DNA from: Spirochaetota bacterium
GTDB taxonomy: Bacteria; Spirochaetota; UBA4802; UB4802
Length of the DNA stretch: 48,092 nucleotides
Assembly (NCBI GenBank): GCA_035420565.1
Contig: DAOLVF010000003.1
Location: 1-48,092, forward strand
Reading direction: 5' to 3'
How positions within the stretch are numbered: the stretch's first letter is position 1; the number at the start of each line of letters is the position of its first letter. Shown one piece after another: positions 364-45,367 of this stretch. Below the pieces are notes generated by a model. It made no database searches and had not been told where the DNA came from. It saw only the letters and a list, made by a program, of their open reading frames with translations. The translations under genes and the position numbers were made by a program.

Positions 364-1794
364 ATGAAAAGATTTTTAAAATGGCTTGCGATAGTTATTG
401 GTGGATTGATTGCACTGGTTATTATTGCCAGTATTGTTTTAATGCTCATCATCAACAAAGATATGATTGCTCAGCAGGCAGAAAAAGTCCTTAACCGTCA
501 TGTAACCATTGAATCCATTGATGTCAGTATATTCAGTGTGCTTTCTGGCATTGAGGTGAAAGGCGTTGCTATATCCAATTTCAAAACACCGCAACAACTA
601 TCAGCATTAAAGGGAAAACCTGTTGATAAAGCTGATCTTTTTGCAGGGCTTGATTCGTTTACCTTTAAGCTCAAAATCCTTCCATTGTTACAGGGTAAAT
701 TTGAGCTAAGAGAACTTTTACTCAGTGGTCCGAAGGTAAATATTGTACGCTATAAAAGCGGTGCATTTAATTTCTCCGATTTAATGAAACCATCTACAAA
801 AGAAGAGAAAAAAGTAGAAGAGGTTAAAAAAGAAGAACCATCAAAACCTTTAACAGCAGATACATTGCCGGTAAGTATTACCATTGGCAGGATTGGCATA
901 GAAAAAGGAACTGTCACCTTTACCGATCAATCATCAGGGCAAAAGGTAATGCTCTATAATTGCAATGCATTGGTGCACAATATAGAAATTGATCCTAAAG
1001 ATTTAAAGAATAAAAATCAGGTAAAGCTTACCGTAGACATAGGCATCAAGACCATTGGCAAGACAAGTACCGGGAGTGTCGAGTCATTTGATATAGGGCT
1101 ATCTGCAAAAGGCAACGTAAAACCATTTGATCTTAAAACACGTATCTTAAATCCTGAAATAGCGCTTAAAGCGGGAAGCCCCTATGGTACCATGACAGGA
1201 TTACAGATATTTGATGCTATAAAGAGCAATGAAACACTGGCAAACTACGCCGGGAAATTTGATTTCCTGGCAAAGGATGTTAAATGGAAAAACGGCTATA
1301 TTGATATATGGTACAAGGGAGGATTGCTGAAGATCACTAACGGTAAAATAAGCACTGATGATTATGCAGGCAACTTCAAAGCCGACATAAATCTTAACAC
1401 CAGCACAGTTAATGCCGACATTGATATGATCCTCAACGAGAAGCACAATAAGAGTATCTATAACGGTATAAAAGGCAACGCTTCTAAACTTATCAAGGGT
1501 GATGTTGCAAAATATGTAAAACCTGAAAATGTTGCTGATCAAGCCTTCAAATACTTAACCAATAAAGACGGGAAGGTTTACCTTAAATTTGCTGTAACCG
1601 GCCCAATGAATAAACCTAAAACAAAACTTGTAGAACCAAAGCTTCCTTCTTTAAATGATATTATTAAAGATATGGCAGGCGATGTTGTTGATGTTGCTAA
1701 AGAAAAAGCCGTTAAAAAAGTATCACAAACAGTAGAAAAAACAACCGACAAAGCAAAAGATAAAGCTACAAAGAAACTTAAAAAGTTGTTTTAG
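364..1794 (+). CDS. AsmA-family-like membrane-anchored protein
   Basis: The 476-aa ORF has GGAGGG about 5 nt upstream of its ATG. An N-terminal TM anchor (LAIVIGGLIALVIIASIVLMLII) is followed by a segment resembling AsmA N-termini (VTIESIDVSIFSVLSGIEVKGVAISNF). The C-terminal tail is Lys-rich. Confidence 0.55.
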   Translation: MKRFLKWLAIVIGGLIALVIIASIVLMLIINKDMIAQQAEKVLNRHVTIESIDVSIFSVLSGIEVKGVAISNFKTPQQLSALKGKPVDKADLFAGLDSFTFKLKILPLLQGKFELRELLLSGPKVNIVRYKSGAFNFSDLMKPSTKEEKKVEEVKKEEPSKPLTADTLPVSITIGRIGIEKGTVTFTDQSSGQKVMLYNCNALVHNIEIDPKDLKNKNQVKLTVDIGIKTIGKTSTGSVESFDIGLSAKGNVKPFDLKTRILNPEIALKAGSPYGTMTGLQIFDAIKSNETLANYAGKFDFLAKDVKWKNGYIDIWYKGGLLKITNGKISTDDYAGNFKADINLNTSTVNADIDMILNEKHNKSIYNGIKGNASKLIKGDVAKYVKPENVADQAFKYLTNKDGKVYLKFAVTGPMNKPKTKLVEPKLPSLNDIIKDMAGDVVDVAKEKAVKKVSQTVEKTTDKAKDKATKKLKKLF

Positions 1795-1800
1795 ATCAAA

Positions 1801-1849
1801 CCTCATCATTACTCCCTCTCCTTTTTTTAAGGAGAGGGCGATAATGAGG
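1801..1849. terminator. Hairpin terminator between convergent genes
   Basis: The sequence CCTCATCATTACTCCCTCTCC-TTTTTTTAA-GGAGAGGGCGATAATGAGG has a perfect 8-bp inner stem (CCCTCTCC/GGAGAGGG) plus outer pairing, with a T/A-rich loop and flanks. It lies between the stop codons at 1794 (+) and 1858 (-). Confidence 0.6.
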
Positions 1850-1857
1850 GTTCATTA

Positions 1858-2676
1858 TTATTTCCCGGTAAAGTTTGGCTTTCGCTTCTGAGCAAATGCC
1901 GTAAAGGCTTCAAATAGATCATCAGAAGGAATGATGTTGGCACTTATTGATGCTACATATTTTAATGCCTCATCAGTAGTTTTACCAATACCAAAGTTTA
2001 ATACATCCTTTGATGCCTGTACCGCTAATGGTGAATTTTCAGCAATCTCCATAGCCATCTTCTCAGCCCCTGCATACAGTGCCTTTTGATCAGCAAACAC
2101 TTCATTAATTAACGATATCTCTTTTGCACGCTGTGCGGTAATATATTTTGCGGTATAGGCTAACTCACGTGTAATGCCCTGACCAACAATGTGAGGGAGG
2201 CGCTGCAAAACACCAACATCAGCCACAAATCCTACCGCAGCTTCACGAAGGCTAAACTGTGCATCAGCACTTGCCAGCCTGATATCACACGAGGCTATCA
2301 TATCTAGCCCGGCACCAATGCAGTATCCATGCACTGCGGCAATAACCGGTTTACGGCATTTTTCAATGCATGTCATGGTGTCCTGCATTCTATAAATTTT
2401 CTGTAACAGGCTTCGCTTAATCCCTCCTTTCTGGGATGGTTCGGCAAGCTCTTTTATTTCACCAGCCATCTCAATCAAATCAATCCCAACCGTAAAGGAT
2501 GCCCCTTTAGCAGCTAAGACAATAACTCGTATATCATCATCAGCATCCAGCTCTTTAAACACAGACGGCGACTCCCACCACGCTGCAGGATTCATAGCAT
2601 TTTTCTTTTCAGGCCTGTTCAAAAAGACCCATGCAACCGGCGGCTTTTTCTCTACTAAATAATATTTGTATTCCAT
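1858..2676 (-). CDS. Enoyl-CoA hydratase/isomerase (crotonase) family protein, dienoyl-CoA-isomerase-like
   Basis: The 272-aa ORF shows crotonase-fold hallmarks: VAWVFLNRPEKKNAMN, FTVGIDL, and VIAAVHGYCIGAGLDMIASCDIRLAS. Confidence 0.85.
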   Translation of the reverse strand: MEYKYYLVEKKPPVAWVFLNRPEKKNAMNPAAWWESPSVFKELDADDDIRVIVLAAKGASFTVGIDLIEMAGEIKELAEPSQKGGIKRSLLQKIYRMQDTMTCIEKCRKPVIAAVHGYCIGAGLDMIASCDIRLASADAQFSLREAAVGFVADVGVLQRLPHIVGQGITRELAYTAKYITAQRAKEISLINEVFADQKALYAGAEKMAMEIAENSPLAVQASKDVLNFGIGKTTDEALKYVASISANIIPSDDLFEAFTAFAQKRKPNFTGK

Positions 2677-4220: not shown

Positions 4221-4226
4221 GCAGTC

Positions 4227-4254
4227 TTGACAGGGAAATATAAACTGGTATAAA
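4227..4254 (+). promoter_or_regulatory. Sigma70-type promoter with extended -10, upstream of the cyclase gene
   Basis: TTGACA (4227-4232) is followed by a 16-nt spacer ending in TGg, then TATAAA (4249-4254). The site is about 150 nt upstream of the ATG at 4403. Confidence 0.4.
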
Positions 4255-4402: not shown

Positions 4403-6460
4403 ATGAATAATACCACTCTTGTATCAGTAACTATCGCCATGATTTTTTCTTGTTCTTCTCTGGCTTATAGCGCTGAGGCTACCTATGACATGCGTAATCT
4501 AAAATTTGACACTACAACAACCTATGCCATTAAAGCACAATGGCTATTCTGGTGGAATCAGATCATTGACCCTGTATCTATTGATGACAACAAAGCGCCT
4601 CAACCTACCGATATCGTTATGATGCCGCAACACTGGACCGACTACAAGCTCAATGGCACCTTGCTCCCTGCAAAAGGATGTGCAACCTATGCACTGAAGA
4701 TACTCCTTCCTGATAATGCCATCTATGGGATTTATTTAGACCACATGGTCACAGCGTACCGATTGTACATCAACGGTGTTGAGGTTGCAAATAACGGGAA
4801 GGTGTCAAAGAATCTGTCAGCAATGCGTAACGAATGCAGGCACCAGGCAATATATTTTACTCCAAAAAATAAAACTGCATTGTGCGTGCTGCAAATCAGT
4901 AACCGGGACTATCGCACCGCTGGTATGTGGCACCCCCTCATTGTTGGTAAAGATAGAGCAATACTTGCGCACTACAACACTAAAGTCATAAGCGATCTTT
5001 TTCTGTTTGGCGCAATCCTCATCATTGGTTTATACAACATAGCATTGTTTCTTTTCCGAACCAGGGACAGGGCTCCACTGTGGTTTGGGTTATTTTGTTT
5101 AACAGTATGTGCCCGCATTGCAGCTACCGGCAGTACAACCATTGCCAATATATTTCCGGGATTCCCATGGGAGTTGCAGATCAAAATGGAATTGAGTGTA
5201 TTTTATTTAGGCAGTCTTTTCTTTGGACTTTTTTTCCATGAAATTTATCCCATGGAAATAAAAAAGAAACATCTGCAATTCTTCAACGGCATTTTTATAC
5301 TGCTGACAGTGCTGGCAATAACCACACCGGTTTCATTTTTTAATAGGTTGGTACCTTATATGCAAATAGCAGTTATGGCAGGACTTTCATATATTCTTGT
5401 TTGTCTTATCATTGCAGCATTACGCAAACGTCCGCATATACACTATTTCCTTGCAGGGTTTGTGCTATTTATGGTAACAGCCGTTAATGACATCCTCTAT
5501 GCAAAAAATATATTGCCAACCATGTATATTCTTCCTGCAGGATTGTTTGTTTTTATATTTACCCAGGCTATTGCTATTGCACGCATCTTTTCATTTTCTT
5601 TTTTGCAGGTTGAGCATCTTTCCGCACATCTTAGCGATCTCAACATATCGCTTGAACGCTTTGTTCCGCATGAATTTTTATCATTTTTGCAAAAACAGAG
5701 CATCCTTGATGTGCAGCTTGGCGACCAGACGCTCAAAGACATTACCATCCTCTTTGCAGATATTCGTTCGTTTACCACGTTATCCGAAAAAATGTCTCCG
5801 GAAGAAACATTCAAATTTTTAAATTCGTACCTTAACCGTATCGGGCCAATTATACGCAGCCATAACGGTTTTATTGATAAATACATAGGGGATGGCATCA
5901 TGGCGCTTTTCCCGCAATCTCCTCAAGACGCATTGAATGCGGCGATAGCCATGGTAAAACGTATTGCTGAATATAATGACGAGCGTAAAAAATATCAGCT
6001 TTCACCCATCAGTATTGGAATAGGTATTCACACCGGCAGCGCTATCTTAGGAATAATTGGCGAAACCATGCGTATTGAAAGTACCGTTATATCCGACACA
6101 GTAAACCTATCAAGCCGTATAGAGAGCTTAACAAAACATTTTCGCACCACCATACTTGTTTCAGGTGACGTCTACGAACAGGTAAAAGACATTCCAGAAT
6201 ATAACTTCCGCTACATCAGTAAGGTAATAGTAAAGGGAAAATCCCAACCAACAAAAGTTTATGAGGTATTATCCATGTATCCGGATGATGCAGTGGCGCT
6301 GTTTACATCTACAAAGGAGCAATTCAAGAAGGCTTTAACCCTCTATAACAAAAAACAGTATACTGAAGCGCTTCACATCTTTAAAGAGATTGCATTAAAA
6401 AACCCCTGCGACATGATTACAAAAAATTTTATAGAGGACATGGAAGAAAAAAAGGACTAG
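4403..6460 (+). CDS. 7TMR-DISM sensor adenylate/guanylate cyclase (class III)
   Basis: The 685-aa ORF has a signal/extracellular N-domain and about 7 TM helices (residues about 195-400). The class III cyclase catalytic domain shows ITILFADIRSFTTLSE and DKYIGDGIMALF. The C-terminal tail is TPR-like. Confidence 0.85.
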   Translation: MNNTTLVSVTIAMIFSCSSLAYSAEATYDMRNLKFDTTTTYAIKAQWLFWWNQIIDPVSIDDNKAPQPTDIVMMPQHWTDYKLNGTLLPAKGCATYALKILLPDNAIYGIYLDHMVTAYRLYINGVEVANNGKVSKNLSAMRNECRHQAIYFTPKNKTALCVLQISNRDYRTAGMWHPLIVGKDRAILAHYNTKVISDLFLFGAILIIGLYNIALFLFRTRDRAPLWFGLFCLTVCARIAATGSTTIANIFPGFPWELQIKMELSVFYLGSLFFGLFFHEIYPMEIKKKHLQFFNGIFILLTVLAITTPVSFFNRLVPYMQIAVMAGLSYILVCLIIAALRKRPHIHYFLAGFVLFMVTAVNDILYAKNILPTMYILPAGLFVFIFTQAIAIARIFSFSFLQVEHLSAHLSDLNISLERFVPHEFLSFLQKQSILDVQLGDQTLKDITILFADIRSFTTLSEKMSPEETFKFLNSYLNRIGPIIRSHNGFIDKYIGDGIMALFPQSPQDALNAAIAMVKRIAEYNDERKKYQLSPISIGIGIHTGSAILGIIGETMRIESTVISDTVNLSSRIESLTKHFRTTILVSGDVYEQVKDIPEYNFRYISKVIVKGKSQPTKVYEVLSMYPDDAVALFTSTKEQFKKALTLYNKKQYTEALHIFKEIALKNPCDMITKNFIEDMEEKKD

Positions 6461-6501: not shown

Positions 6502-6533
6502 TAAGCTGTTAGCTATAAAAATGCATGTCTATA

Positions 6534-8692: not shown

Positions 8693-10501
8693 TTATTTGT
8701 TTTTATTAATAAGCACCTCATAGTCCCTGCCGGCATTCCAGAAAATATATCCCTGCGTACCGGTATCAGTGCATGCCTGTATCTGCTTCTGTATATAGTC
8801 ATATCCCCAGCCCGGAGAAAGCATGTTAAACGCCTGCAGGTAAGGGCGCACTGTTGCCTTTGAATACATATATGCCCTGCTAAGACTTTCACGCACTATT
8901 GTATAATAACCCTCTGGGGTTATCTTTCCATCAAAAAATTTCCTCCCATAGTGCGACGGATATACCATAGGACAGAGCACATCTATAATGCCTGTCATTG
9001 CCTCAATATCCTGCCCCAACCATTGTCCAAACTCATACCATACCGTAAATCCATACACATCTACCGATACAGGCACAGCAAGTGATGCTTTTGCTGTACG
9101 CAAAAAATCGGTAATGGCTTCATACTTATATATGCCATTATCCGGTTTAAAGGTAAACACACATCTATTGACCGGACCATCCGTAGGGAAGCGTACGTAG
9201 TCAAACTGTATCTCATCAAAGCCTGCATCCTGTGCCTGTTGTGCAATCGCAATAGTATACCTGTGTACAAAATCGCTGTACGGATCAATCCAGTATTCCT
9301 TTGGATTTCCCTGCCATGCCTTTTTTGTTGCAGCATCAACAATTGCATACCTATGCTTAAAACCGCTAAATAAACGCTTGTCTTTAAACACCACCATACG
9401 CGCTATAGCCTGTATGCCATTGGCGTGACAATAATTGCACAACTCATGTAATGGGAGTGATGTTTGCAAAGCACCTATCATGGCTGCTGTTTCATTGTTT
9501 ATGCCATACACGTTGCCATAATCATCTTTAATGTCAAACACCAGGGCGTTACAGCCTGAGCGTTTTGCATACCCCACACACTTTTTGATAGTTTGCCATG
9601 AGGTTGGCGTAGCGGCATATAATCCTCGAATGGAATCGTTGCTGGTTTTTACTGCTTTTACAAAAATATAATGGGTGCCATCGGTCAATACGGCACAACA
9701 AAAGTTTTTTGGCGATAGTTCCTGATAAACAAATGTTCCGTTGTTATTTACAACCAGCCTATCACCATCAACTATCGCCCAGCCATCTTCGTAAAGAGAA
9801 CATCCATAGTATGGACCGCCATTCCCCGCAAACACCATCTTCCAGCCTGACGCACCGTATGAATACACCTGCGGTGTAAAGCGTGTTGCCGCCCGTACCG
9901 GCGAGCCACCGGAAACATGCGCAATTGTTTCATAAAAGCCAATGCTGTCCGAATACATCTTCCTGGGAAAACTGCCGTTTACTGCAACAAATCTGCCTGC
10001 CGTATAACGGTATATGCCATTCCACGATGTCCCCACAACAAGCTGACCGCCCTTTGCATAGAGCGCAGTAATGCATGCATTAGCAGGCAGCCCTGTCATT
10101 GGTATAACCTCCCAGCGTTTGCCCGCATCACCCGATGTATACAGCGTATATTTTGTTGCGCAGTACAGCCGGGCGGGGTCACAGCCATCAACACAAAATG
10201 CTGATATGCTTCGATACTGATTACACGGTGAATGTATGGTGCGTGTATATGCGCTTGCAGGGGTTATATTTTCCCAGTAACTATCGCCACCATTATTTTT
10301 AAAAATACCATGCTGCGATGTTGTAAGGTATATGATGTTCCCGTGAACCTGTATATCATTGATGACAATGTTTGCTGGTAATCCTTTACACTTTGCTTCA
10401 TGATAATATAAAAAGCCATTGTTTTGTACCAGCAATGGCTTCCATGAGGCATATACCGTTGAAGAAAAAACAAGAATAAGGCTAAGCGCTAAACTTTTCA
10501 T
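8693..10501 (-). CDS. Secreted two-domain protein: BNR/Asp-box beta-propeller-like N-domain plus putative glycoside-hydrolase TIM-barrel (DUF4015/GHL-like) C-domain
   Basis: The 602-aa ORF has a signal peptide (MKSLALSLILVFSSTVYAS) and an Asp-box (TSGDAGKRW). The C-terminal half (ALVFDIKDDYGNVY ... WIDPYS ... FDEIQFDYVRFP) matches my recollection of the DUF4015 putative hydrolase family. Its start overlaps the XPB gene by 20 nt. Confidence 0.6.
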   Translation of the reverse strand: MKSLALSLILVFSSTVYASWKPLLVQNNGFLYYHEAKCKGLPANIVINDIQVHGNIIYLTTSQHGIFKNNGGDSYWENITPASAYTRTIHSPCNQYRSISAFCVDGCDPARLYCATKYTLYTSGDAGKRWEVIPMTGLPANACITALYAKGGQLVVGTSWNGIYRYTAGRFVAVNGSFPRKMYSDSIGFYETIAHVSGGSPVRAATRFTPQVYSYGASGWKMVFAGNGGPYYGCSLYEDGWAIVDGDRLVVNNNGTFVYQELSPKNFCCAVLTDGTHYIFVKAVKTSNDSIRGLYAATPTSWQTIKKCVGYAKRSGCNALVFDIKDDYGNVYGINNETAAMIGALQTSLPLHELCNYCHANGIQAIARMVVFKDKRLFSGFKHRYAIVDAATKKAWQGNPKEYWIDPYSDFVHRYTIAIAQQAQDAGFDEIQFDYVRFPTDGPVNRCVFTFKPDNGIYKYEAITDFLRTAKASLAVPVSVDVYGFTVWYEFGQWLGQDIEAMTGIIDVLCPMVYPSHYGRKFFDGKITPEGYYTIVRESLSRAYMYSKATVRPYLQAFNMLSPGWGYDYIQKQIQACTDTGTQGYIFWNAGRDYEVLINKNK

Positions 10502-12164: not shown

Positions 12165-12600
12165 ATCCGTTAAATTTTTGGTTTACTATTTTTTCTAAAA
12201 TTGTGAGTTCTTTAGCAAGTCTGTGTTTTATTATAGCACTTAGAAATGGCTGAACAATAAAATACCGTAAAGGGAGTACTATAGCACAATCTGCTGTTAC
12301 ACTGGTTTTATTGTCAGATTGTTCAAATGTATAGGTATAACTATATTCCTTAATAGCCCCTTTTAACTTTTTTAGCTCACAGTATTTAAAAGGTATCGCA
12401 GTATAGGTAAGCCTCATTGGAAATTTATTTACAATAAAACGAATATCAACATCAATAAGCTGTAATCCTTCTTCGTCACGAGCTATGCGATAGTTCCTGA
12501 AAGCGGGTTTTAACCGTGCCAATTTATTGATATGATCTATCGCTGAATAAACCTCATCAATGGGGAATGAAAATGTTCTGGAAATGGTTACTTTTATCAT
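12136..12600 (-). CDS. SRPBCC (START/RatA-like) superfamily protein
   Basis: At 154 aa, its size and beta-rich pattern with a long C-terminal helix are typical of SRPBCC ligand-binding proteins. It overlaps the XPB start by 29 nt. Confidence 0.45.
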   Translation of the reverse strand: MIKVTISRTFSFPIDEVYSAIDHINKLARLKPAFRNYRIARDEEGLQLIDVDIRFIVNKFPMRLTYTAIPFKYCELKKLKGAIKEYSYTYTFEQSDNKTSVTADCAIVLPLRYFIVQPFLSAIIKHRLAKELTILEKIVNQKFNGYDKTTYRSE

Positions 12601-18355: not shown

Positions 18356-18856
18356 AGCTATATCCTCACATTATCATGTAATCAAAGGTAATAGTTATTG
18401 TATGAAATGAGAAGAATTTATTGCAAAAAAATTATTCAAGCAGATATGTTCATCTGTGAATTATACATATAGTATAATTATTATAATACTTTTATTCAAT
18501 ATTCATGACTTCGTTTTATTATAAACCATATTGAATATCTATAATAAATTTATACTTTGTCAAACTTTTTTCATGTTTTATGTTGTGATACATAATTACA
18601 AGGTCAACAGATATGGCACTCCTTTCAAACTTCATCTATCCATTTTTGCATATTTCAAGTAACTATCGCACCTCGCTATTGCCTTATATGTTTTGTAATC
18701 TTTGAACCATGGTCATGAAACGTATGTAACCATTGATTACAGCCTCTTATGTTTTATTGCAAAAAATATTGTACTTGATTTCTATGTAAAGATTCGTAAT
18801 TAAATCTAATACTATAACTATTTCAATTTACAAAACTTTTAATGCAGGGTAAAATT

Positions 18857-19355: not shown

Positions 19356-19775
19356 ATGGCAACCATTACTGAATACATTACCATAGCAACAAAAGGTCAG
19401 GGTGATATCATTGATATAACAATGGATGCGCAAGCGATAGTTACTAATAATACTATTAACAATGGGCTATTATGCCTTTTTGTGCCAGGTTCCACTGCTG
19501 CTATCACCACCATTGAATACGAACCAGGCTTACAGAAAGATATAAATATTTTTCTTGAGACAATCATTCCACGCAACGCTCATTATAACCATCACGATAC
19601 ATGGCATGATGATAATGGTTCTTCGCACCTCAGAGCTGCAATGATAGGTGCTTCAATCACTGTCCCAATAGTTCAGGGTAAGCTTACACTGGGGACATGG
19701 CAGCAGATAGTACTCATAGAATGCGATACCCGAAAAAGGGATAGGAAGATAGTAGCTCAGATTGTATATTCATAG
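19356..19775 (+). CDS. YjbQ/UPF0047 family protein (secondary thiamine-phosphate synthase)
   Basis: I re-started the ORF at the ATG at 19356 (MATITEYITIATKG...), which has an AAAGGTGAG RBS. The length (139 aa) and motifs (FVPGSTAAITTIEYEPG, HLRAAMIGASITVPI) are typical of the YjbQ family. Confidence 0.8.
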   Translation: MATITEYITIATKGQGDIIDITMDAQAIVTNNTINNGLLCLFVPGSTAAITTIEYEPGLQKDINIFLETIIPRNAHYNHHDTWHDDNGSSHLRAAMIGASITVPIVQGKLTLGTWQQIVLIECDTRKRDRKIVAQIVYS

Positions 19776-27412: not shown

Positions 27413-27576
27413 ACAAAGCATCTCCGTGTTGTAAGGTTTGTTTATTAATACGCCGGACTGTTAAAAAATTAAAAGAATGGGGGAATTTTTTTGTTTTTTT
27501 ATAAAAATTTTTTAAAATATGCCAATGCATCAATTAATTGCTTGACCAACTAAATTTAAATGGAAAAGTATTTGCC

Positions 27577-28209
27577 ATGGTAAAGCTTGATAATCCTTAT
27601 TCACAGTATCGCCCCACATGGAAAGTTTTTATTCCAATGCTTGTGATGTACCCGTTATTGAAAGTAGCAATACAGTATGCGTATTTTTCTTTTTTATATC
27701 AGTATAGCATTGTGCTTTTATTGTTAATTGTCATTGCACAATATTGTGATAAAGGACTTTTTACAAAAGAGCGGATTTTTGCCTTTGACCTTCCTTTTGA
27801 ACGAAAGATATTTTACCTCATGGTCATGGTAATTATCCTGATCCCTATCCGTAATATAGCCATACAATTTACACAAAACTCTCAAACGTTACACTTTTAT
27901 CAGGGGCAGATGTCATCGCTTGAGTCAATGCTTGTCATGTTAGCTATTATTGCACCATGTGAAGAGCTTTTTTTCAGGGGATTTGTACAATACAACCTTA
28001 CCTTTTATTTTGGGAAATATGGGGCGATAGTTATCGGCGCATTATTCTATAGTTTGGTAGGGATAGCCGCACATTCACTGTACCTTGCAGTCATCTTCTT
28101 CCTCATTGGTATAACAATAGGATATATCTACAGCACGGTAAAATCACTGCTGCAATCGATAGTTCTTCATGTCATAACCATTATTTTTATGTATATCTAT
28201 CCTTTTTAA
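27577..28209 (+). CDS. CPBP-family intramembrane glutamic endopeptidase (CAAX protease/Abi)
   Basis: The protein is multi-TM and carries the motif-1 sequence EELFFRGFV and a distal His motif (SIVLHVITI). The ORF-track start at 27538 is a TTG, so I used the ATG at 27577. Confidence 0.75.
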   Translation: MVKLDNPYSQYRPTWKVFIPMLVMYPLLKVAIQYAYFSFLYQYSIVLLLLIVIAQYCDKGLFTKERIFAFDLPFERKIFYLMVMVIILIPIRNIAIQFTQNSQTLHFYQGQMSSLESMLVMLAIIAPCEELFFRGFVQYNLTFYFGKYGAIVIGALFYSLVGIAAHSLYLAVIFFLIGITIGYIYSTVKSLLQSIVLHVITIIFMYIYPF

Positions 28210-30894: not shown

Positions 30895-31923
30895 CTATCG
30901 CAGCAATCGGCTGCTTTTATTCTGTATGATTGCGTCCATATCTGCTTTACCAACAATAAAATTATCACCATGAACACTATGCGCCAGGGCACACAAGGCA
31001 AGGGCAGTATCAACTGCTGTTTCAAGCGATTGCTGTTGTATCAATGAATAGATAAACCCTGCAGCGAGAGCATCACCTGCACCAATACGGTCAACGATAT
31101 GTGGTACCTCCAATGTTTTCATCGCCACCTCATGGTTACGTGTTGCTGCTGCTGCGCCCACCCTTACTTCAGATGCCGAAGTACCTTCGCGATAGGTTAT
31201 CACAATCGCAGAAAGATTTGCATACGTATTAAAGAGTGCCTGTATGGTGCTATGGATATCGTGTTTTTTCTCAGAATTGGGCAACAAAAAAAGTGCAAGA
31301 TGCTCTTCATTCCCTATCAACACATGAATAGAGGGCATCAGCCGTAAAAATGCATCCCTGGCATCATCAACACTTTTCCATAATGTCTGGCGATAGTTAA
31401 TATCAAATGAAACAACCCCCTTTTTTTCATTGACAATACTTGCTGCTTTAATGCTTTCGTCACAGATAGTATTTGAAAGCGCCAGGGTTATACCTGTTGT
31501 ATGAAACCATGCATTGCTTGGGATTATGGCGTTCCAATTAATGTCTTCATGCTGTAATTGTGCAAATGCACTGTTGTTTCTGTCATAGATAAGCCGTGAA
31601 GCCCTGAGTCCGGCACCCTGTTCATAAAAATACAACCCCATGCGCGTATCCTGTTTCATCACAATGTTGTCAGTAATGACGCCAAACCCCTGTAAATAAC
31701 GCTTTGCAGCATCACCCAGAACGGTATCAGGCAGAGCAGAAACAATCCTGCATGGTATTCCCACCTGTGAAAGTGTCACCGCACAGTTTGCCTCTGCTCC
31801 TCCAAAGTACGCTTCAAACATATTTGTCTGAAAAAGCCTGCTGTAGCCTGGAGGTGATAATCGCAGCAGTATCTCACCCCAGGCAATAAATTGACTTGTG
31901 ATAGTATGCTCTTTTCCCATCAT
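30895..31923 (-). CDS. kdgK: 2-dehydro-3-deoxygluconokinase (PfkB family)
   Basis: The 342-aa ORF carries GEILLRLSPP, FGGAEANCAVTLSQVG, YDRNNSAF and the PfkB signature DRIGAGDALAAGFIY. Confidence 0.8.
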   Translation of the reverse strand: MMGKEHTITSQFIAWGEILLRLSPPGYSRLFQTNMFEAYFGGAEANCAVTLSQVGIPCRIVSALPDTVLGDAAKRYLQGFGVITDNIVMKQDTRMGLYFYEQGAGLRASRLIYDRNNSAFAQLQHEDINWNAIIPSNAWFHTTGITLALSNTICDESIKAASIVNEKKGVVSFDINYRQTLWKSVDDARDAFLRLMPSIHVLIGNEEHLALFLLPNSEKKHDIHSTIQALFNTYANLSAIVITYREGTSASEVRVGAAAATRNHEVAMKTLEVPHIVDRIGAGDALAAGFIYSLIQQQSLETAVDTALALCALAHSVHGDNFIVGKADMDAIIQNKSSRLLR

Positions 31924-31996
31924 CCAGCACCATCATCAGTAACTATCGCCCACAACAATTTTTTGCCCTATCATCCATGGGTAATAGTGTACATGG

Positions 31997-33376: not shown

Positions 33377-34084
33377 CTATACCGTAACCGCTATTCCTTT
33401 TCCATGGGGCAATATAACTTTTTGCGCTTCCACATCCCATTGTTGCAACGTTTCATCAACAAGATGCTTACCCTTAACCTGATAATGGATGGGGATCACA
33501 ATGGTTGGCTTGCATTCCCTCACAAACTGCGCTGCCTGCTGAAGGTCCATCCCATCTTTGCCAATGATAGGATAGGTAGAGCATGCCACCTGCACCATGG
33601 CGATAGTTATTGTATAGGGGGTCAGAGCCTTTTTTAACTCTTCCGTGTACAGGGTATCCCCTGAAAAATACAGCACCATGCTATCCTTTTTGATAATGAA
33701 TCCAACGGCATCCTTTGCCATAGGGTGAAAGGCTGGAACAGCAATGACGGTAAATCCTTCACACTCAACAGACTGCCCTGGTGTCATAGCCTTTACCTTT
33801 GTTGCGTTATGTTTTACAGCCCTTTTGACTGCACTCGTTGAACCTATGATTGGTATATTTCGTTTAACTGCAACATCGATAGCACGCTTACACCAGTGGT
33901 CAACATGGTTGTGCGAAACCAGCATATAATGAACAGGCATTATTGATTCGGGATCAACGGTTAAGGGAACTGCCCGTAAAAATTCAAAGGAACCCCACCA
34001 TGGATCGGTCATAACCACGATGCCATCAAGGTTAATACATACCGTTGCCTGCCCAATAAGGGTAAATTCAATCTTCATACCCAC
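33377..34084 (-). CDS. MBL-fold metallo-hydrolase
   Basis: The 235-aa ORF carries the H.H.DH motif (SHNHVDHW). It overlaps the upstream gene by 10 nt. Confidence 0.75.
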   Translation of the reverse strand: MGMKIEFTLIGQATVCINLDGIVVMTDPWWGSFEFLRAVPLTVDPESIMPVHYMLVSHNHVDHWCKRAIDVAVKRNIPIIGSTSAVKRAVKHNATKVKAMTPGQSVECEGFTVIAVPAFHPMAKDAVGFIIKKDSMVLYFSGDTLYTEELKKALTPYTITIAMVQVACSTYPIIGKDGMDLQQAAQFVRECKPTIVIPIHYQVKGKHLVDETLQQWDVEAQKVILPHGKGIAVTV

Positions 34085-35055
34085 CCCCGCATGTTAATAT
34101 GGTACTCATACGCGTCGATGGTACTTTCAATATCACTTTTTTCGGGCTGCCAGCCTAATAATTTTTTTGCACGTGTATTATCAAAGACATAGTCGCGTAA
34201 TGCTATTTCTAGATGTTGCGGTTCAATGGGCGATAGTTTTATGGCAGATAATCCCTTTACAATAGTACGGGCAATCCATGCAGGAACTGAAATTATTTTT
34301 GGCTTTTTGCCGGCATGTTTAAAGAGCGCCTCTACAAGCTGTCGCGTTGTTGGCACATTATCACTGGAAACATTTGCAATGATTATACCTTTTTTTATTT
34401 TTTCAAGACACAAATAAATTGCATTTGCAACATCGCGTACATCCACCATCTGTAATTTTGTTTTACCACCACCTGGCAGTATAACCGGACTTCCTTTGTA
34501 CACCGCTTCCATCTGGGCAACTAAAAATGGCTCATTCTGCCCGGGACCGTTGATCGTTGGTGGGCGCACTATTGAAACACCATATCCTTTCTCTGCCAGC
34601 TGCGTGCACATACGCTCCCCCTCAACCTTGTGCCTGCCGTAAGGGCATACAGGCTGTAACGGAACATCTTCACTGCAGGGGACCGGGACATCAATGCCAT
34701 ACACCTCTACCGATGAGATAAAGACAAGTTGCGGAATTTTTAATTCTTTGCATACCTCTACAACATTTTTTGTTCCCGTAACATTAATGGCAAACATGTC
34801 CTTTTCATCGCGCACAAACTGCGCTAAAGCCGCCGCACAATGGACAATAGCCTGTACACCCTTGCATGCCTTGTGCACAGTATCTTTCTGTACAATATCA
34901 CCCCTAATAAAGGTAAACTTTTTATTGGAAATAACTGATGGTTCATTCATGTCTTTCAGGTCTATCCCTGTTACAGCAAAGTTTTTCTCTAACAGGGTTT
35001 TTACAACCTGTCGTCCTAAATAGCCCGAACATCCTGTTACGCATATCGCACTCAT
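34075..35055 (-). CDS. NAD-dependent epimerase/dehydratase (extended SDR)
   Basis: The 326-aa ORF has the Rossmann motif VTGCSGYLGRQVV and the catalytic Y...K (PYGRHK). Confidence 0.85.
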   Translation of the reverse strand: MSAICVTGCSGYLGRQVVKTLLEKNFAVTGIDLKDMNEPSVISNKKFTFIRGDIVQKDTVHKACKGVQAIVHCAAALAQFVRDEKDMFAINVTGTKNVVEVCKELKIPQLVFISSVEVYGIDVPVPCSEDVPLQPVCPYGRHKVEGERMCTQLAEKGYGVSIVRPPTINGPGQNEPFLVAQMEAVYKGSPVILPGGGKTKLQMVDVRDVANAIYLCLEKIKKGIIIANVSSDNVPTTRQLVEALFKHAGKKPKIISVPAWIARTIVKGLSAIKLSPIEPQHLEIALRDYVFDNTRAKKLLGWQPEKSDIESTIDAYEYHINMRGWV

Positions 35056-35790: not shown

Positions 35791-38664
35791 TTATTGAATT
35801 TCAATAGTAACAAAACGTAATTCATGTGGCTTAAGCGATAGTAACTGTTTATCTGCCACATCACCTTTCCTTTCCCCATAGCAGGTAGAATAATAAACTG
35901 CTATAGGCTGTATGGATTTGATACTTATGTGCGTACTCTGTGATTGTCCGGCAGTTTCAAATAGTCCAACGGTAAACTTTTTATTGGTTATGGGGTACAT
36001 CCACACCACAGCAATTGCTGGATTGGACACTGTTACCGGTGAAGAGGTTGTATAACCATATTCCTGGAAACTTTTATCATACGCCTTTGCCAGTGCATAG
36101 GTGATGCTATCAGCGCTAAAAGTTGTAAAGGTACTCCTGAATACTGTTTTATCCTTCAGGCTCTGCCCAAGTCCTACTTTTCCCCATAATGTCCATCCAA
36201 TGCAGCAATGATAAAATCCATTACTATCCCTGGAATAACTTGACTCAGGAACTATCGCTTTGCTGTCCTTTGTCATAAATACAGCATACATTGCATCATC
36301 CCTTACCATGGTAAACGCATCACAGTGGAACGATGGCGGCAATCCATACATCCACTGGAAGGGATATAAAGTGTCATTGATACTTTTAAACGGTGCAGTA
36401 TTCTTTGCAGCAGGAATGATATTGCCACCATTATAAATGGATTCCCAGAGTAATGGAGTAAATGCAGCATCATAGTACAGTGCATCCGATGTTAAAGGAT
36501 ATGCAAAACAATGTTCAGCTATCTGTGGCTGTGACCCGCTGAATGTCTGTATCAATTCAATCTTTTTTTCATCCGCTGGAAGTACAATCTCCTGGGTAAG
36601 GGTAAGCGAAGGTGTAAAAAGCTGGTAAAAAAAATACACCACCTTCAACAGCCATGGCGGCAATGAAACATGAAATGATTTATCCAGAAAATCTGCAATC
36701 AGTTCCATCCCCTTGTAATACTCTTTAACCGTACCCTCAATGATAAGTCTATAATCATCATGATAACGGTAAACCAAAACATCAGGACTTTTAAATCCTT
36801 CAATGCATTGATAATAATCCCGCCGTGCACCATTTTCGCCCCGCACTGTCTGTACATACTGATTAAATCCGTACTGAGCATTGTTTCGTATCCACTCCTT
36901 TTGCAGCTCTTTATCATATACACCGGTAATGCGTCCTTTTTTCTGGTCGATAGTTACCCTGTAAAAATGACTATCGATAATAATTATATTTTTTTTATAC
37001 TTTATTTTTTCCCAGCTCCGCCCGTCATGGAAAGCCTCACTATATCCAGCCTTATGCATCAATATCTGTGGCAGCTTTACCCATTCGGAGCGGGTATTCA
37101 TCCAGTCCTTAACATCATCCGAGGTATAATGTGTTTTACCAAAAGGAACGGGACGGGGATTGTGATCATTATTGAGGAGTATTGCTTTATATCCCGATTC
37201 AGCAACAATATGGAAAGAATCAACATCAATGGGCTTATCATGCACCATAGCATCAACAACGGTTGAAGCAAGCTGATACATCCCTCTATCAAACATGTAG
37301 CTTATCAAAAGTCTTTGGGGGTCCGCCTGAATAAAGTCCAGATAAATCTGCTCGCCCCAGAATGGTGCCATCTCACCCTTGATGCGCGGTATTACACTGT
37401 TGTAGCGCGAACGCACATAATCAAAAAACTGCGAAGGTGTAGCAATGATAATCTGTGGATTTATCATTTTTTTATTCCATTCCCGGGCTATTTCAGAGGG
37501 GACGATGTTTTGTGGTTGATTGTCGCCACCCTGTGCAGGATAGTAAGGCAAAAGGTATGCATCGTAGGGATAGTCCCAATGTGCATTGCCATAATCAAAA
37601 TACTGTTTTATTTCAGCGGTAGGGTACCCTTTCTCAAGTTGCGCCAGATGCAGGGCAATGCTGTTCTCCATAGTGGTAAAAGCATGCTCATCAAAGGGCA
37701 GTTTTAGACGCATAGCAAGGTCAAAGTTTTCGCCATACCCATTAAGTCCGGCACTGTGCCATACCAGTACATTCGCACTGGTATCCGGCGAAACACCATA
37801 AAACAGCGGAGGGAGTACATATCGTGTATCATTTGGGCCAACCAGAAGATAGGGGATGTCATTTGCACACAGTATCTTGGTTACCTTTGAAAAATCCATG
37901 ACATCATGAATACACGCAGTATGTATTGTTACATTGTACTTTTTTGCAAGGTTAAAGGTTGATTGCAGTGAAGCTATGATTGCGTCAGGGCTCATAAATC
38001 GATTCTGGTGTGAAATAAGGAATGCTCCCAGCTCAAAATCGCCCTTTTGTAATGCTTTGATAAGCTTTTGCTTTTTATCCTGTTCAATGGTAGCATCCGA
38101 CAAATATTCCTGAACCGCCCAGCTAACCTCGGTAAAAAGCTTAAATGATGCATCCTTACCATAGTGTTTTGTCTTCTCTACCAGTTCCAGTTCAATATCA
38201 ATGTTTTTGTAATTTTGTATACGAATATTCTTCTGCGATTGGGTAAACCCAATATCAACATGGGTAAATGGAACGCAGTATATCTTCCATGGTTTAACAG
38301 CAGGGATTGTAATCTTTTTTTTGACAGTGGTAGTATCGCACTGCATGGTAAAAACAGCTTTGTGCGTGTTTAAATCAGGCACCTTGATGTCTAAAAAGAT
38401 ACTGGTATCCGGGTTATCTGTATGCATTGTGCTGATAGAACCATCAACTGATGTCCGTATGGTCAGCTTTTGAATAGTTTCTTTACTGGGAAATACAACC
38501 TGTACACGGCGGTAGAGCAGTGTACCCTTTTTATATACCAGCGGTGTTGGAGTAATAGTTACATCGTGATTGCTATTATTAAATGTATCAATTGCTGAAT
38601 ACCCTTGAAGTGGTAACGATACAAAAAGTATTATTAAAAAAATAATGCTATACATGTATCGCAT
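35791..38664 (-). CDS. Secreted GH38-like glycoside hydrolase (alpha-mannosidase-family N-domain), tentative
   Basis: The protein is about 957 aa with a signal peptide (MRYMYSIIFLIILFVSLPLQGYSA). The metal-site-like motif VPFTHVDIGFT resembles the GH38 H.H.D motif. The central and C-terminal regions are large and beta-rich. The likely start is the ATG at 38664, directly after GGAGGG. Confidence 0.45.
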   Translation of the reverse strand: MRYMYSIIFLIILFVSLPLQGYSAIDTFNNSNHDVTITPTPLVYKKGTLLYRRVQVVFPSKETIQKLTIRTSVDGSISTMHTDNPDTSIFLDIKVPDLNTHKAVFTMQCDTTTVKKKITIPAVKPWKIYCVPFTHVDIGFTQSQKNIRIQNYKNIDIELELVEKTKHYGKDASFKLFTEVSWAVQEYLSDATIEQDKKQKLIKALQKGDFELGAFLISHQNRFMSPDAIIASLQSTFNLAKKYNVTIHTACIHDVMDFSKVTKILCANDIPYLLVGPNDTRYVLPPLFYGVSPDTSANVLVWHSAGLNGYGENFDLAMRLKLPFDEHAFTTMENSIALHLAQLEKGYPTAEIKQYFDYGNAHWDYPYDAYLLPYYPAQGGDNQPQNIVPSEIAREWNKKMINPQIIIATPSQFFDYVRSRYNSVIPRIKGEMAPFWGEQIYLDFIQADPQRLLISYMFDRGMYQLASTVVDAMVHDKPIDVDSFHIVAESGYKAILLNNDHNPRPVPFGKTHYTSDDVKDWMNTRSEWVKLPQILMHKAGYSEAFHDGRSWEKIKYKKNIIIIDSHFYRVTIDQKKGRITGVYDKELQKEWIRNNAQYGFNQYVQTVRGENGARRDYYQCIEGFKSPDVLVYRYHDDYRLIIEGTVKEYYKGMELIADFLDKSFHVSLPPWLLKVVYFFYQLFTPSLTLTQEIVLPADEKKIELIQTFSGSQPQIAEHCFAYPLTSDALYYDAAFTPLLWESIYNGGNIIPAAKNTAPFKSINDTLYPFQWMYGLPPSFHCDAFTMVRDDAMYAVFMTKDSKAIVPESSYSRDSNGFYHCCIGWTLWGKVGLGQSLKDKTVFRSTFTTFSADSITYALAKAYDKSFQEYGYTTSSPVTVSNPAIAVVWMYPITNKKFTVGLFETAGQSQSTHISIKSIQPIAVYYSTCYGERKGDVADKQLLSLKPHELRFVTIEIQ

Positions 38665-39386: not shown

Positions 39387-39404
39387 ATTACCTCTGATAT
39401 TCTG

Positions 39405-43560: not shown

Positions 43561-43722
43561 TACAATTCCTGTAAAAAAACGTTTGTAAACAAAACATTAA
43601 TTAATAATTGTATCACAATTACAATGATTTACAATATTGGAGCGATAGTTATTGTTTATATCATATTTCCGTATGTATTGGTCAATAGCAAAATTAAAAA
43701 TTTTTTTAAAAGGAGCCTTTAT

Positions 43723-44322
43723 ATGAAAACGATAGATGCTCGAGGACTGGAATGCCCACAGCCGGTACTATTGACAAAATCTGCAATAGAGGATGAAAAC
43801 CCTGACGAACTGGAAGTGTTAGTAAGCAGCCAAACATCAGCGGGCAATGTTACCCGTTTTGCCGAACATAGTGGATACCGTGTACAAACCAGTATAAAAG
43901 ATGATTACTTCACTATTGTATTGCATAAAGCAATAGAAGCCAAACCGTTTGCTTCAGCAAAACTACAATCATCAATGAATAATGGGAAAAATGTTGTTGT
44001 TTTTATAACCAGCAATGAATTTGGCAGGGGCGATACTGAACTAGGCCAGCTCCTCATGAAATCATTCATCAACACCATGAACGAAGCCAATGTGTGCCCA
44101 ACAACCATAATCTTTGCTCACTCGGGCATATTTTTAACAACCGAGGATTCACCGGTTATTCAACCACTCCAGCAGATTGAAAAAAAAGGGGTACAGATAC
44201 TCAATTGTGGTACCTGCCTTGAGTATTATAAACGCACAAAACTGCTTAAAGTGGGAACTATCTCAAATATGTATACCATTACTGAAACATTAATGATGGC
44301 AGATAAGCTTATAAAGCTATAA
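43723..44322 (+). CDS. yedF: YedF-like sulfurtransferase-type selenium-metabolism protein (TusA-like N-domain + DsrE-like C-domain)
   Basis: I re-started the ORF at the ATG at 43723 (AAAGGAG RBS). The TusA-type motif is ARGLECPQPVL. The C-terminal half (VVFITSNEFGRGDTELG) is DsrE/YedF-like. The protein is 199 aa. Confidence 0.7.
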   Translation: MKTIDARGLECPQPVLLTKSAIEDENPDELEVLVSSQTSAGNVTRFAEHSGYRVQTSIKDDYFTIVLHKAIEAKPFASAKLQSSMNNGKNVVVFITSNEFGRGDTELGQLLMKSFINTMNEANVCPTTIIFAHSGIFLTTEDSPVIQPLQQIEKKGVQILNCGTCLEYYKRTKLLKVGTISNMYTITETLMMADKLIKL

Positions 44323-44323
44323 A

Positions 44324-45367
44324 CTATTCAAAGAGTGTTTGTATATCCTCTATCCCTTTATAGGCAAGCCCTAAATGTTCATACGCAAGGCGTGCTGCAA
44401 CCCTTCCTCGCGGGGTACGTTTGAGCATCCCAATCTGCACCAGATATGGTTCATAAAAATCTTCCAGCGTTGTAATCTCTTCACCTATTGATATGGCTAT
44501 CGTCTTTATCCCCACCGGGCCTCCGTCATATTTATCAATAATGGTGGACAATATCTTTCTGTCCATATCATCCAATCCCAGCATATCAATATGAAGTTTA
44601 TCCAGAGCATACAGGGCAATTTGTTTATCAATCATATCCTTTTTATGAACTATCGCAAAATCAAGCACCCGCTTAACAAGGCGATTGACTATGCGTGGTG
44701 TCCGACGCGAACGCCTTGCAATCTCCTGTGCAGCTTCTTCTTCTATGCTACACCCTATTATTGCTGCGGTTCGTAAAGCAATAGTTTCCAGATCATCTAT
44801 CTCGTAATAATCAAGACGCAGCGGTATACCAAACCTATCACGCAACGCTGAGGTTAAAAGACCTGTGCGCGTTGTTGCGCCAATCAGGGTAAAGGGGGCA
44901 AGTTGCAATTTTATGCTCTTTGCACCAACACCCTGCCCTAAAATAATATCAAGCTCACCATCCTCCATAGCGCTATACAAAAGCTCTTCAATCGCTGGCG
45001 AAAGCCTATGAATTTCATCAATAAAAAGCACATCCATTGCTTCCAGATTGGTTAAAAGTGAAGCCATATCGCCAGACTTTTCTATTGCCGGTGCCGAAGT
45101 AGCTTTAATATTAACGCCCAGCTCATTGGCAACAATGAATGCCAGTGTGGTTTTGCCCAGTCCTGGAGGCCCTGCAAGCAAAACATGGTCCAGTGGCTTT
45201 TTCCGTAATTTTGCCGATTCAATAAATACACGTAAGTTTTCGGTTAACTGCTTCTGTCCTATAAACTCACTGAGACGTTGAGGGCGTAATTTTTTCTCAA
45301 AATCTTCTTCATCCAGTGATAATGGTGAGATAATGCCCGGGTTATTATTTTCTTCCTTTTTTTTCAT
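44324..45367 (-). CDS. ruvB: Holliday junction branch-migration helicase RuvB
   Basis: The 347-aa ORF carries [12 protein letters not shown], Walker [10 protein letters not shown], Walker [10 protein letters not shown], and [15 protein letters not shown]. Confidence 0.95.

Follow-up and report, generated by a model that had tools for sequence, protein, structure and literature searches.

A strand-symmetric, frame-independent 9-mer in an uncultured Spirochaetota lineage, a candidate DNA-uptake-type sequence

Introduction

Uptake tags of the 'self-recognition' kind are so far known only from relatives of Haemophilus and Neisseria. The Pasteurellaceae USS (Hin-type AAGTGCGGT and Apl-type ACAAGCGGTC) is built on a non-palindromic core of 9 bp, beyond which weaker, A/T-rich flanks extend. 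It occurs once per ~1-3 kb without strand or replichore bias, mostly within ORFs and in several frames albeit with an excess in non-coding DNA, and ~10% of copies form inverted pairs (PMC1939737). Variant types are found in related lineages and copies evolve through point mutation at homologous sites. The Neisseriaceae DUS (GCCGTCTGAA, with dialects), read by the ComP receptor, is strict in its inner core but varies at the outer positions, and its species-specific dialects share a common core. The required part of this core is CTG (PMC3630211). DUS copies show no orientation bias and occasionally form inverted pairs with strong hairpins, many of which look like terminators. In N. gonorrhoeae only 35% lie in ORFs (PMC1939737).

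Other abundant words are read inside the cell or have no proven function. Cyanobacterial HIP1 (GCGATCGC) is a palindrome overlapping methyltransferase sites (GATC, CGATCG). It is hyper-abundant in all coding contexts, its function is unproven, and it is reportedly conserved between genomes and periodic over 10-90 kb. Chi and KOPS/AIMS are short non-palindromic words, over-represented chiefly within genes and co-oriented with replication. Here we describe a motif from a spirochaete whose pattern closely matches that of the uptake tags.

Results

The window studied, the whole stretch of 48,092 nucleotides, has a GC content of 38.9%. A both-strand exact search recovered 19 copies of AACTATCGC (reverse complement GCGATAGTT), 9 on the + and 10 on the - strand. 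A previous sequence-only reading had recognised this excess but counted 16 copies in a 9:7 orientation, overlooking those at 12487(-), 23703(-) and 31390(-). Its chance expectation of about 0.4 copies was close to the 0.33 (maximum 2) obtained from dinucleotide shuffles of the window. Markov models gave 0.49 (order 3), 0.97 (order 4) and 3.2 (order 5) copies, expectations that are inflated by the motif as the models were trained on the window itself. Across the 65-kb extended region the motif was the top outlier of all 9-mers (z = 28, order-3 Markov). Copies are randomly spaced (CV 0.96) at ~1 per 2.7 kb, and enrichment is ~40-fold. The 14-mer CAGTAACTATCGCC occurs three times (4425, 10275 and 31937) as had been reported, whilst the single-mismatch copies, put at a minimum of eight, number 19. 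The GC-rich patch at 46.1-47.4 kb holds no copy in the window-wide exact search, as previously noted. The GC-rich rubrerythrin insertion, missing from L008 and regarded as foreign DNA, has none. The motif is far above chance in this uncultured spirochaete chromosome, on both strands and in every stop-free frame.

Frame use was then compared across the copies. GCG-ATA-GTT (A-I-V) is read antisense to genes of the AsmA family (388..396, - strand), DUF4015 (9770..9778, +), the YjbQ family (19434..19442, -), an Rce1-like protease (28024..28032, -), a 961-aa GH38-like protein (36250..36258, +) and ruvB (44648..44656, +). A seventh possible A-I-V copy (43642..43650, -) lies at the 5' edge of a TusA-like gene, within its longest ORF, whereas the shorter gene call starts downstream of the copy and makes it intergenic; it is kept in L008, which is 95% identical. 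The frame x-ACT-ATC-GCx (T-I-A) is used twice as ACT-ATC-GCC, in sense orientation, in a 7TMR-DISM adenylate cyclase gene (4429..4437, +, with the full 14-mer) and a metallo-beta-lactamase-fold gene (33600..33608, -). The three xGC-GAT-AGT (D-S) copies are all antisense: GGC-GAT-AGT (G-D-S) in the DUF4015 gene (10279..10287, +, with the 14-mer) and a PGA_cap gene (21838..21846, +), and TGC-GAT-AGT (C-D-S) in a 226-aa ORF (22326..22334, +). CTA-TCG (L-S) is read in sense in the DUF4015 gene (9712..9720, -, an inverted pair with 9770 whose starts are 58 bp apart), a 518-aa ORF without Pfam match (23703..23711, -) and, as CTA-TCG-CCC (L-S-P), an NAD-dependent epimerase gene (34230..34238, -). AAC-TAT-CGC (N-Y-R) is read in sense in a 154-aa ORF (12487..12495, -), where the homologous site in the relatives L236 and L239 is AGCTATCGC, and in a PfkB kinase gene (31390..31398, -). 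The two plainly intergenic copies lie between a divergent MscS-type channel gene and a 168-aa ORF at 18842-19348 (18661..18669, +), and in the 73-bp Nramp/PfkB spacer at 31924-31996 (31941..31949, +, with the 14-mer).

All five stop-free frames are therefore occupied, and the sole empty frame, G-CGA-TAG-TT, contains a stop codon. The sequence-only reading had seen use of several frames but listed four coding contexts, missing N-Y-R; its six A-I-V, two T-I-A and three D-S copies stand, L-S rises from two to three, and one of its three intergenic copies is the ambiguous 43642. The 17 genic copies are spread over ~15 genes of unrelated Pfam families. Of the 38 peptide sites able to encode the motif, 17 do so, where codon usage predicts 0.69, and several of the codons involved are rare within their synonymous sets (CTA 5.7%, TCG 12.5%, GCG 13.8%). 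Enrichment thus acts on the DNA level, independent of reading frame, and the earlier view that peptide or codon bias cannot explain the excess is borne out.

The motif has no polarity. In 29 sequence stretches, equal numbers of copies (38:38) pointed each way relative to the G-rich (GC-skew) strand, and with respect to transcription the split was 30:27. The window lies on one replichore, its GC skew being negative from end to end. Like USS, copies are mostly intragenic with a non-coding excess, as 25% of non-seed copies were intergenic compared to ~13% non-coding DNA (~2-fold, p = 0.003). The four exact pairs with starts no more than 60 bp apart were all inverted and comprise 8 of ~100 copies, in line with ~10% of USS/DUS copies (PMC1939737). 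As in DUS, such pairs give strong hairpins. Unlike many DUS pairs, they lack a U-tract and are not terminator-like.

The enrichment extends beyond the window into an uncultured Spirochaetota clade. The flanks of the same genome contained 5 further copies in 16.9 kb. When metagenomes were scanned with a 16-mer as seed, 118 loci were recovered, 30 of which had tetranucleotide usage like the window (motif masked, r of at least 0.90) and were taken as clade loci; 28 of these come from elsewhere than the window. Not counting the seed match, the clade loci held 58 extra 9-mers in 261 kb and the remaining 88 loci only 4 in 589 kb (~2.2 per 10 kb in clade regions against 0.07 in unrelated DNA), whilst viral-contig controls held 6 extra copies in 998 kb. 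Pooled clade DNA (394 kb) contained 114 copies, or 88 without seeded ones, against 2.2-3.7 expected from Markov models trained with exact copies masked. Frame use, flanks and clade loci agree with the earlier proposal of a genome-wide, DNA-level signal of the USS/DUS/HIP1 kind.

The motif consists of a strict inner core, CTATC, and tolerant outer positions, as in DUS. Variants at positions 3-7 were not enriched whereas those at positions 1, 2, 8 and 9 were enriched 4-7 fold. The excess over expectation, (O-E)/E, was +48 in the window and +31 at other loci for exact copies, +1.1 and +1.4 with one mismatch, and ~0 with two. For H. influenzae USS the corresponding values are 183, 2.0 and 0.22 (PMC1939737), the same profile of a huge excess at zero, ~2-fold at one and none at two. 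The fuller consensus is ~yTTTnnCAGK-AACTATCGC-MMA. Its flanks are T-rich at -10 to -7 and G-depleted to +22, in sense, antisense and intergenic copies alike, with a G-poor, A/T-rich preference across ~35 bp. Information content falls to background beyond ~-10 and +12.

Relatives fetched via ruvB, and thus unbiased with respect to the motif, revealed lineage dialects that, as in DUS, have the core in common. Their top 9-mer was CTATCGCCC (18 copies against 0.3 expected), with the consensus GARCTATCGCCCA. In the relative L012, AGCTATCGCCCA occurs four times and AACTATCGC is absent. Between homologous sites the differences are A/G at position 2 or synonymous substitutions, and losses include G-to-A changes at the CpG (11338 and 44778). 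Copies are thus gained and lost through point mutation at homologous sites, not insertions. The ruvB site (44648) is intact in 5 of 6 related species, with a synonymous GCT in the sixth (L012). Overall, site conservation was not clearly above background, with 6 of 7 sites kept at 94% identity, where ~60% would be expected (p = 0.16), and ~3 of 11 at ~80% identity, where the expectation is ~19%.

Discussion

The best reading, to which we give about even odds, is that AACTATCGC forms the core of a DNA-uptake-type sequence in this lineage. A USS/DUS-like role appears a better fit than a HIP1-like one: the motif is no palindrome, and it matches in mismatch profile, in A/T-rich flanks, in dialects and in inverted pairs. 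We infer that the protein reading it would be a receptor for uptake and not one that works inside the cell. A surface or periplasmic DNA receptor, part of a natural-transformation machine, would prefer double-stranded DNA bearing the motif. Conspecific fragments would be imported and recombined more often because this receptor binds motif DNA better, and point mutations creating or improving a copy would be over-transmitted, a molecular drive as argued for USS and DUS. The motif would then build up wherever tolerated: in stop-free frames through mostly synonymous or conservative changes, equally on both strands and somewhat more between genes. This candidate differs from USS in being unrelated in sequence, in its host (Spirochaetota rather than Gammaproteobacteria) and in its enrichment, which is ~4-fold higher for USS; DUS are also denser. 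Density and enrichment several times below those of H. influenzae or Neisseria count against the uptake reading. A crude signature search of ~0.5 Mb of clade DNA detected neither a type IV pilin, a ComP-like minor pilin nor a PilB/PilT-type ATPase, a negative of little weight since this sample from several species amounts to roughly a tenth of a single genome. We know of no description of natural competence in this lineage. Among the papers covered by a full-text search, the string AACTATCGC turned up solely in matter without bearing on such a signal, for example primers, in keeping with the earlier remark that no described signal of this sequence is known.

Two alternatives can be set aside as highly improbable. 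A polar chromosome signal of the Chi (RecBCD/AddAB) or KOPS (FtsK) type, read by a translocase or a nuclease and suggested by the sequence-only reading, would suit a short, non-palindromic word over-represented within genes, in a window that lies on one replichore. No skew exists, either in the window (9:10) or across the clade, so this option was rejected; Chi and KOPS are also strongly skewed and, so far as is known, far less enriched than ~40-fold. Descent from a dispersed repeat, whether mobile or paralogous (MITE, REP or gene family), or a codon or peptide bias, might be suspected as stretches of up to 14-16 bp are common to several copies and a few encode G-D-S. Yet the information drop-off, the ~15 unrelated genes, the five frames with 17 observed motif sites against 0.69, and the origin of copies through substitution rule this out. 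Neither confinement to the window nor to one sequence family, both raised earlier, was found.

Somewhat less improbable, but still quite unlikely, is a by-product of a sequence-specific methyltransferase with biased, VSP-like mismatch repair, or a mutational bias regenerating the word. The motif includes a CpG, whose transition variants, AACTATTGC with 15 copies and AACTATCAC with 12, exceed the base-composition expectation 2-3 fold, and the G-to-A losses fall at this CpG. However, position-7 variants have an O/E of 1.3 under order-3 Markov, that is no enrichment, and the commonest position-8 variant, AACTATCTC, is not a transition. Such repair restores only the methylated cytosine and could not bring all nine core and ~10 flank positions to a consensus, and contiguous 9-14 bp specificity is atypical of methyltransferases. 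VSP-type systems also, so far as is known, produce far weaker enrichment than ~40-fold. The main rival to the uptake reading is a HIP1-like word read in the cell by an abundant chromosomal protein (for nucleoid organisation, repair targeting or self-DNA marking), its density kept by selection. We consider this unlikely, though clearly less so than the others. At ~30-50 fold, enrichment is comparable to that of HIP1, for which 15-300 fold has been reported, copies occupy all stop-free frames and intergenic DNA, the strand-asymmetric footprint of ~35 bp resembles a protein-binding site, and some sites, such as that in ruvB, are kept across ~74%-identical species. By contrast with HIP1, the motif is asymmetric without a GATC or CGATCG methylation core, lacks clear excess site conservation, and changes its flank dialect fast among relatives, as is typical of uptake sequences. 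We know of no non-palindromic intracellular motif of such density and symmetry. All of the sequence features would equally be expected from a strong, sequence-specific, strand-symmetric intracellular drive or selection. HIP1 shares GCGAT with GCGATAGTT, by chance.

A short word in excess in the window and across the clade

An exact search for AACTATCGC and its reverse complement GCGATAGTT found 19 copies in the 48,092-bp window, nine on the plus and ten on the minus strand. The sequence-only reading had counted 16, split 9:7, and had overlooked those at 12487, 23703 and 31390. Dinucleotide-preserving shuffles gave a mean of 0.33 copies and a maximum of 2, whilst Markov models fitted to the window, motif copies included, predicted 0.49 (order 3), 0.97 (order 4) and 3.2 (order 5). 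There were also 19 single-mismatch copies rather than the eight that the sequence-only reading had listed. An unbiased ranking of every 9-mer over the 65-kb extended region, i.e. the window with its flanks from the same genome, put AACTATCGC first among the outliers (z = 28).

The enrichment is not limited to the window. The source genome held 24 copies in 65 kb, with four in the 9.6 kb upstream of the window and one in the 7.3 kb downstream. When metagenomes were scanned with the 16-mer YCAGTAACTATCGCCM, 118 loci came back, and their tetranucleotide correlation with the window, taken after masking of the motif, divided them sharply into two groups. Thirty had r >= 0.90 and resembled relatives defined through ruvB (0.96-0.97), and 88 had r <= 0.875 and resembled unrelated controls (0.69-0.86). 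Only two of the 30 clade-like loci overlapped the region of the window, with 28 lying outside it. All 30 together contained 58 9-mers beyond the seeds in 261 kb (2.2 per 10 kb), and the 88 non-clade loci 4 in 589 kb, or 0.07 per 10 kb. Pooled clade DNA amounting to 394 kb held 114 copies, or 88 without the seed copies by which loci had been fetched, against 2.2 (order 3) to 3.7 (order 4) expected from Markov models for which exact copies had been masked in training. The excess is real and robust, and in the DNA sampled it is of the genome-wide kind known from the Pasteurellaceae uptake signal sequence (USS) and the Neisseriaceae DNA uptake sequence (DUS), which lie tens to hundreds of fold over expectation with a copy every 1-3 kb or so.

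Relatives fetched through ruvB were chosen without regard to the motif. Four of these loci (L008, L010, L011 and L013) carried 3-4 copies per 16-21 kb, and unrelated taxa about 0. A scan of viral contigs with the 14-mer CAGTAACTATCGCC gave 120 loci with one match each. None was clade-like in composition and they held six extra 9-mers in 998 kb, resembling the 88 non-clade loci in extra-copy density; we therefore rejected these matches as chance hits and used them as a negative control. A full-text search of the searchable literature matched the string in 215 papers, and none of the 20 listed treats it as a genomic motif, in agreement with the sequence-only reading, which knew of no such signal.

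The signal acts at the DNA level

Two of the window copies are intergenic, and the other 17 are spread over about 15 genes that belong to unrelated families. The coding copies read A-I-V (seven), D-S (three), L-S (three), T-I-A (two) and N-Y-R (two), which covers all five stop-free frames; the sixth, G-CGA-TAG-TT, holds a stop codon. At peptide sites compatible with the motif, 17 of 38 were spelled as the motif, compared with the 0.69 that codon usage in the window would predict, and for A-I-V tripeptides alone 7 of 16 were spelled GCGATAGTT (0.34 expected). This occurred despite the rarity of the codons concerned within their synonymous sets (CTA 5.7%, TCG 12.5%, GCG 13.8%). Codon or peptide bias is thus refuted as the origin of the excess, as had been argued from fewer copies.

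Dispersal as a MITE or REP repeat fares no better. In a logo of 75 non-seed copies the information was gone beyond about -10 and +12, indicating that the copies are not pieces of a longer element, and similarity stopped within ~12 bp of the core. Some 75% of the copies fall inside ORFs, and homologous sites differ by substitutions rather than insertions. With ~15 unrelated genes involved and no shared extended sequence, descent from one paralogous or mobile family is ruled out.

Orientation is without skew. Relative to the G-rich strand, copies were split 38:38 over 29 sequence stretches, and relative to transcription 30:27; in the window GC skew is negative throughout and the split is 9:10. 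Chi/KOPS-type polar signals are excluded because of this symmetry. The sequence-only reading had seen no strand skew, which these tests bear out, and had likened the word to USS, DUS, HIP1 (the hyper-abundant cyanobacterial word) or a polar motif: a frame-independent signal at the DNA level, extending beyond the window, is what we found, but the polar option has to be dropped.

Spacing between copies was exponential-like (mean 2.4 kb, CV 0.96). Intergenic positions accounted for 19 of 76 non-seed copies, compared with 12.8% non-coding DNA (p = 0.003), with crude gene calls based on open frames of 100 aa or more. In four exact pairs the two starts were no more than 60 bp apart (22-58 bp), and each of these pairs was inverted, though the surplus of close pairs was not significant (p = 0.12). 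Inverted pairs of the extended motif in three metagenome loci (L297, 14239-14270; L249, 5657-5707; L332, 2797-2827) form strong hairpins with 10-14-bp arms (z about -6 to -7). The first of these settings is immediately 3' of a gene, the others being a divergent promoter region and the interior of an ORF. A role as terminators is unsupported, as no U-tract was seen in the pairs examined and only two of four lay 3' of genes.

Anatomy of the word

The 75 non-seed copies gave an extended consensus of yTTT (-10 to -7), two free positions, CAGK (-4 to -1), AACTATCGC and MMA (+10 to +12). In the flanks, G is depleted on the motif strand, to 6-7% at -10 to -5 and 9-12% at +12 to +22 from a background of 18.5%, and the depletion is equally strong in sense, antisense and intergenic copies. 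G-poor flanks in every context indicate that the putative recognised element is asymmetric and about 35-40 bp long.

Within the 9-mer, single-substitution variants at positions 1, 2, 8 and 9 were enriched 4-7 fold over an order-3 Markov model in pooled clade DNA, whereas those at positions 3-7 (CTATC) were not enriched, which points to a strict inner core. Judged against base composition, variants at positions 4-6 looked depleted, but this vanished under the order-3 model. Expressed as (O-E)/E, the excess was +48, +1.1 and about 0 at zero, one and two mismatches in the extended window, and +31, +1.4 and about 0 in the other clade loci. The G8-to-T variant AACTATCTC occurred 26 times in pooled clade DNA versus 4.9 by base composition (~5 times over), in the window for example at 11811, 18864 and 44256. 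This variant could be one that is tolerated, or one into which copies often decay.

Dialects and turnover among relatives

In the ruvB-fetched relatives the top 9-mer was a different one, CTATCGCCC, with 18 copies against 0.3 expected. Anchored on CTATCGC, the consensus was GAR-CTATCGC-CCA(TA) in the relatives L009-L013 and CAGK-AA-CTATCGC-M in the source species. One of these relatives, L012, carried AGCTATCGCCCA four times and AACTATCGC not once (p = 0.002). On this comparison, based on about 20 kb per species, GARCTATCGCCCA and AACTATCGC are dialect forms with a common core and lineage-specific surroundings.

Differences at homologous sites were point substitutions, often synonymous. At 12487 the window has AA where the related loci L236 and L239 have AG; at 11338 and 44778 it has GCAATAGTT where relatives have GCGATAGTT; and one homologous G-D-S site reads AACTATCGC or AACTATCTC depending on species. 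Six of seven sites were conserved at 94% identity (about 60% expected, p = 0.16) and about 3 of 11 at about 80% identity (about 19% expected), both comparisons having low power and leaving out pairs of metagenome loci, which are biased by the seed pattern. Because conservation is not clearly above the 9-mer background, these low-powered data suggest that sites are continually gained and lost rather than held under strong site-specific constraint.

Comparison with known words and competing explanations

The mismatch-load curve has the same shape as those of USS and DUS with a lower amplitude: (O-E)/E at zero, one and two mismatches is 183, 2.0 and 0.22 for H. influenzae USS and 392, 4.8 and 0.65 for N. 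gonorrhoeae DUS (PMC1939737). Both known words lack orientation bias, are in excess in non-coding DNA, evolve by point mutation and have about 10% of their copies in inverted repeats, and 65% of H. influenzae USS lie within ORFs (PMC1939737). The spirochaete motif mirrors each of these traits, and like USS and DUS it has a non-palindromic 9-12 bp core with a weaker extended consensus. It also resembles DUS, in which a strict core is combined with species dialects (PMC3630211), in having lineage dialects around a common core. HIP1, by contrast, is a palindrome overlapping methyltransferase targets, and its sites are reported to be conserved and to recur with a period of 10-90 kb (PMC5861425), whereas AACTATCGC differs from its own reverse complement and contains neither GATC nor CGATCG. 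The contiguous sequence covered for the source genome spans 65 kb.

Our first-ranked explanation, to which we give roughly an even chance, is that the motif is a DNA-uptake-type sequence. Biased uptake followed by homologous recombination (molecular drive) would build up the word, and to our knowledge is the only well-understood process that yields a strand-symmetric, frame-independent, ~40-fold, non-palindromic, extended and dialect-bearing excess; it is ranked first for this reason. Uptake bias, competence and a receptor are then what we infer for this lineage. A crude regular-expression search of ~0.5 Mb of clade DNA, a small sample, gave no match to a pilin (class III leader) or to a GspE/PilB/PilT Walker A motif. 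The sequence data are silent on where the protein that reads the word sits, and a HIP1-like role inside the cell is accordingly our second, tentative choice despite the lack of a palindrome. The word might also mark self DNA or chromosome structure, as a strand-symmetric, non-palindromic signal read within the cell by an abundant protein, with possible roles in repair or recombination targeting, in a defence system sparing marked DNA or in nucleoid organisation. Flank dialects would in that case evolve between species, but we know of no characterised precedent for such a system and consider it unlikely, although the present data fit it and uptake-driven accumulation alike. Biased repair linked to a methyltransferase is more doubtful still, since it is unlikely to push about 20 positions to consensus. 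Polar-motif, mobile-repeat and codon-bias explanations are all refuted by the orientation, logo and spelling results.

The motif, for which we found no prior description, is most simply filed, provisionally, with USS and DUS words, in a new phylum. We know of sequence-specific uptake tags from two proteobacterial families only. If uptake is the correct explanation, a third, unrelated tag would mean that self-biased transformation evolved independently in a distant phylum, and natural competence would be predicted for an uncultured lineage. The dialects should make the receptor discoverable by comparative genomics, as a gene that co-varies with dialect. The motif also offers a cheap marker for contig binning and foreign-DNA detection in the clade. 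Should it prove to be something other than an uptake tag, it would be a new hyper-abundant word comparable to the long-unsolved problem of HIP1.

Source organism and gene content of the window

The window consists of ordinary chromosomal DNA with a GC content of 38.9%. Its genes encode an AsmA-family protein, a 2-hydroxyacid dehydrogenase, a 7TMR-DISM adenylate cyclase, a DUF4015 protein, an XPB-type helicase, an MFS transporter, an acyl-CoA synthetase, an MscS channel, a deacetylase, a PGA_cap protein, UxuA, PfkB, Nramp, an epimerase, a large FAD/Fe-S oxidase, a TusA-like protein, RuvB and PTS-EIIA; Rfam and tRNA scans found no RNA genes. Proteins identical to those of the window occur on contigs of many metagenomes and in the MAG GCA_035385025.1, and the organism is known from metagenome assemblies only. 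Its RuvB shares 99% identity with the protein of "Spirochaetia bacterium UBA2205", listed in the NCBI taxonomy as unclassified Spirochaetia, and 87-90% with those of five further Spirochaetota MAGs, some of which were deposited under the name Leptospira. The record names of the contigs behind two clade loci mention activated sludge.

The segment at 45960-47700 is GC-rich (47.9% over 46-48 kb versus 39% overall), visibly more so within a rubrerythrin gene (46664-47284, minus strand); it also holds a 168-aa ORF (46008-46514) without a Pfam hit. An RNA gene was rejected as the source of this patch, given the rubrerythrin gene and the empty Rfam and tRNA scans. The 1.7-kb segment is probably a recent horizontal insertion, as it is missing from the 95%-identical relative L008. 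An exact search found no motif copy in it, as the sequence-only reading had noted for 46.1-47.4 kb.

Close by, at 47745-47840, are two tandem ~50-bp units, each ending in ATGTCAyCCCTAyGGGATTTTA with a small TCCC-TAy-GGGA hairpin. L008 holds one unit, and no further occurrence was found in ~0.5 Mb of clade DNA. On the minus strand at 23656-27421, ORFs of 518, 413 and 327 aa follow in tight succession, none with a Pfam match. The XPB/Rad25-type helicase gene (10482-12164, minus strand) overlaps by 20 nt the downstream DUF4015 gene (8693-10501, minus strand), which encodes a putative glycosyl hydrolase and has three motif copies inside, and this pairing is kept in the more distant relative L239.
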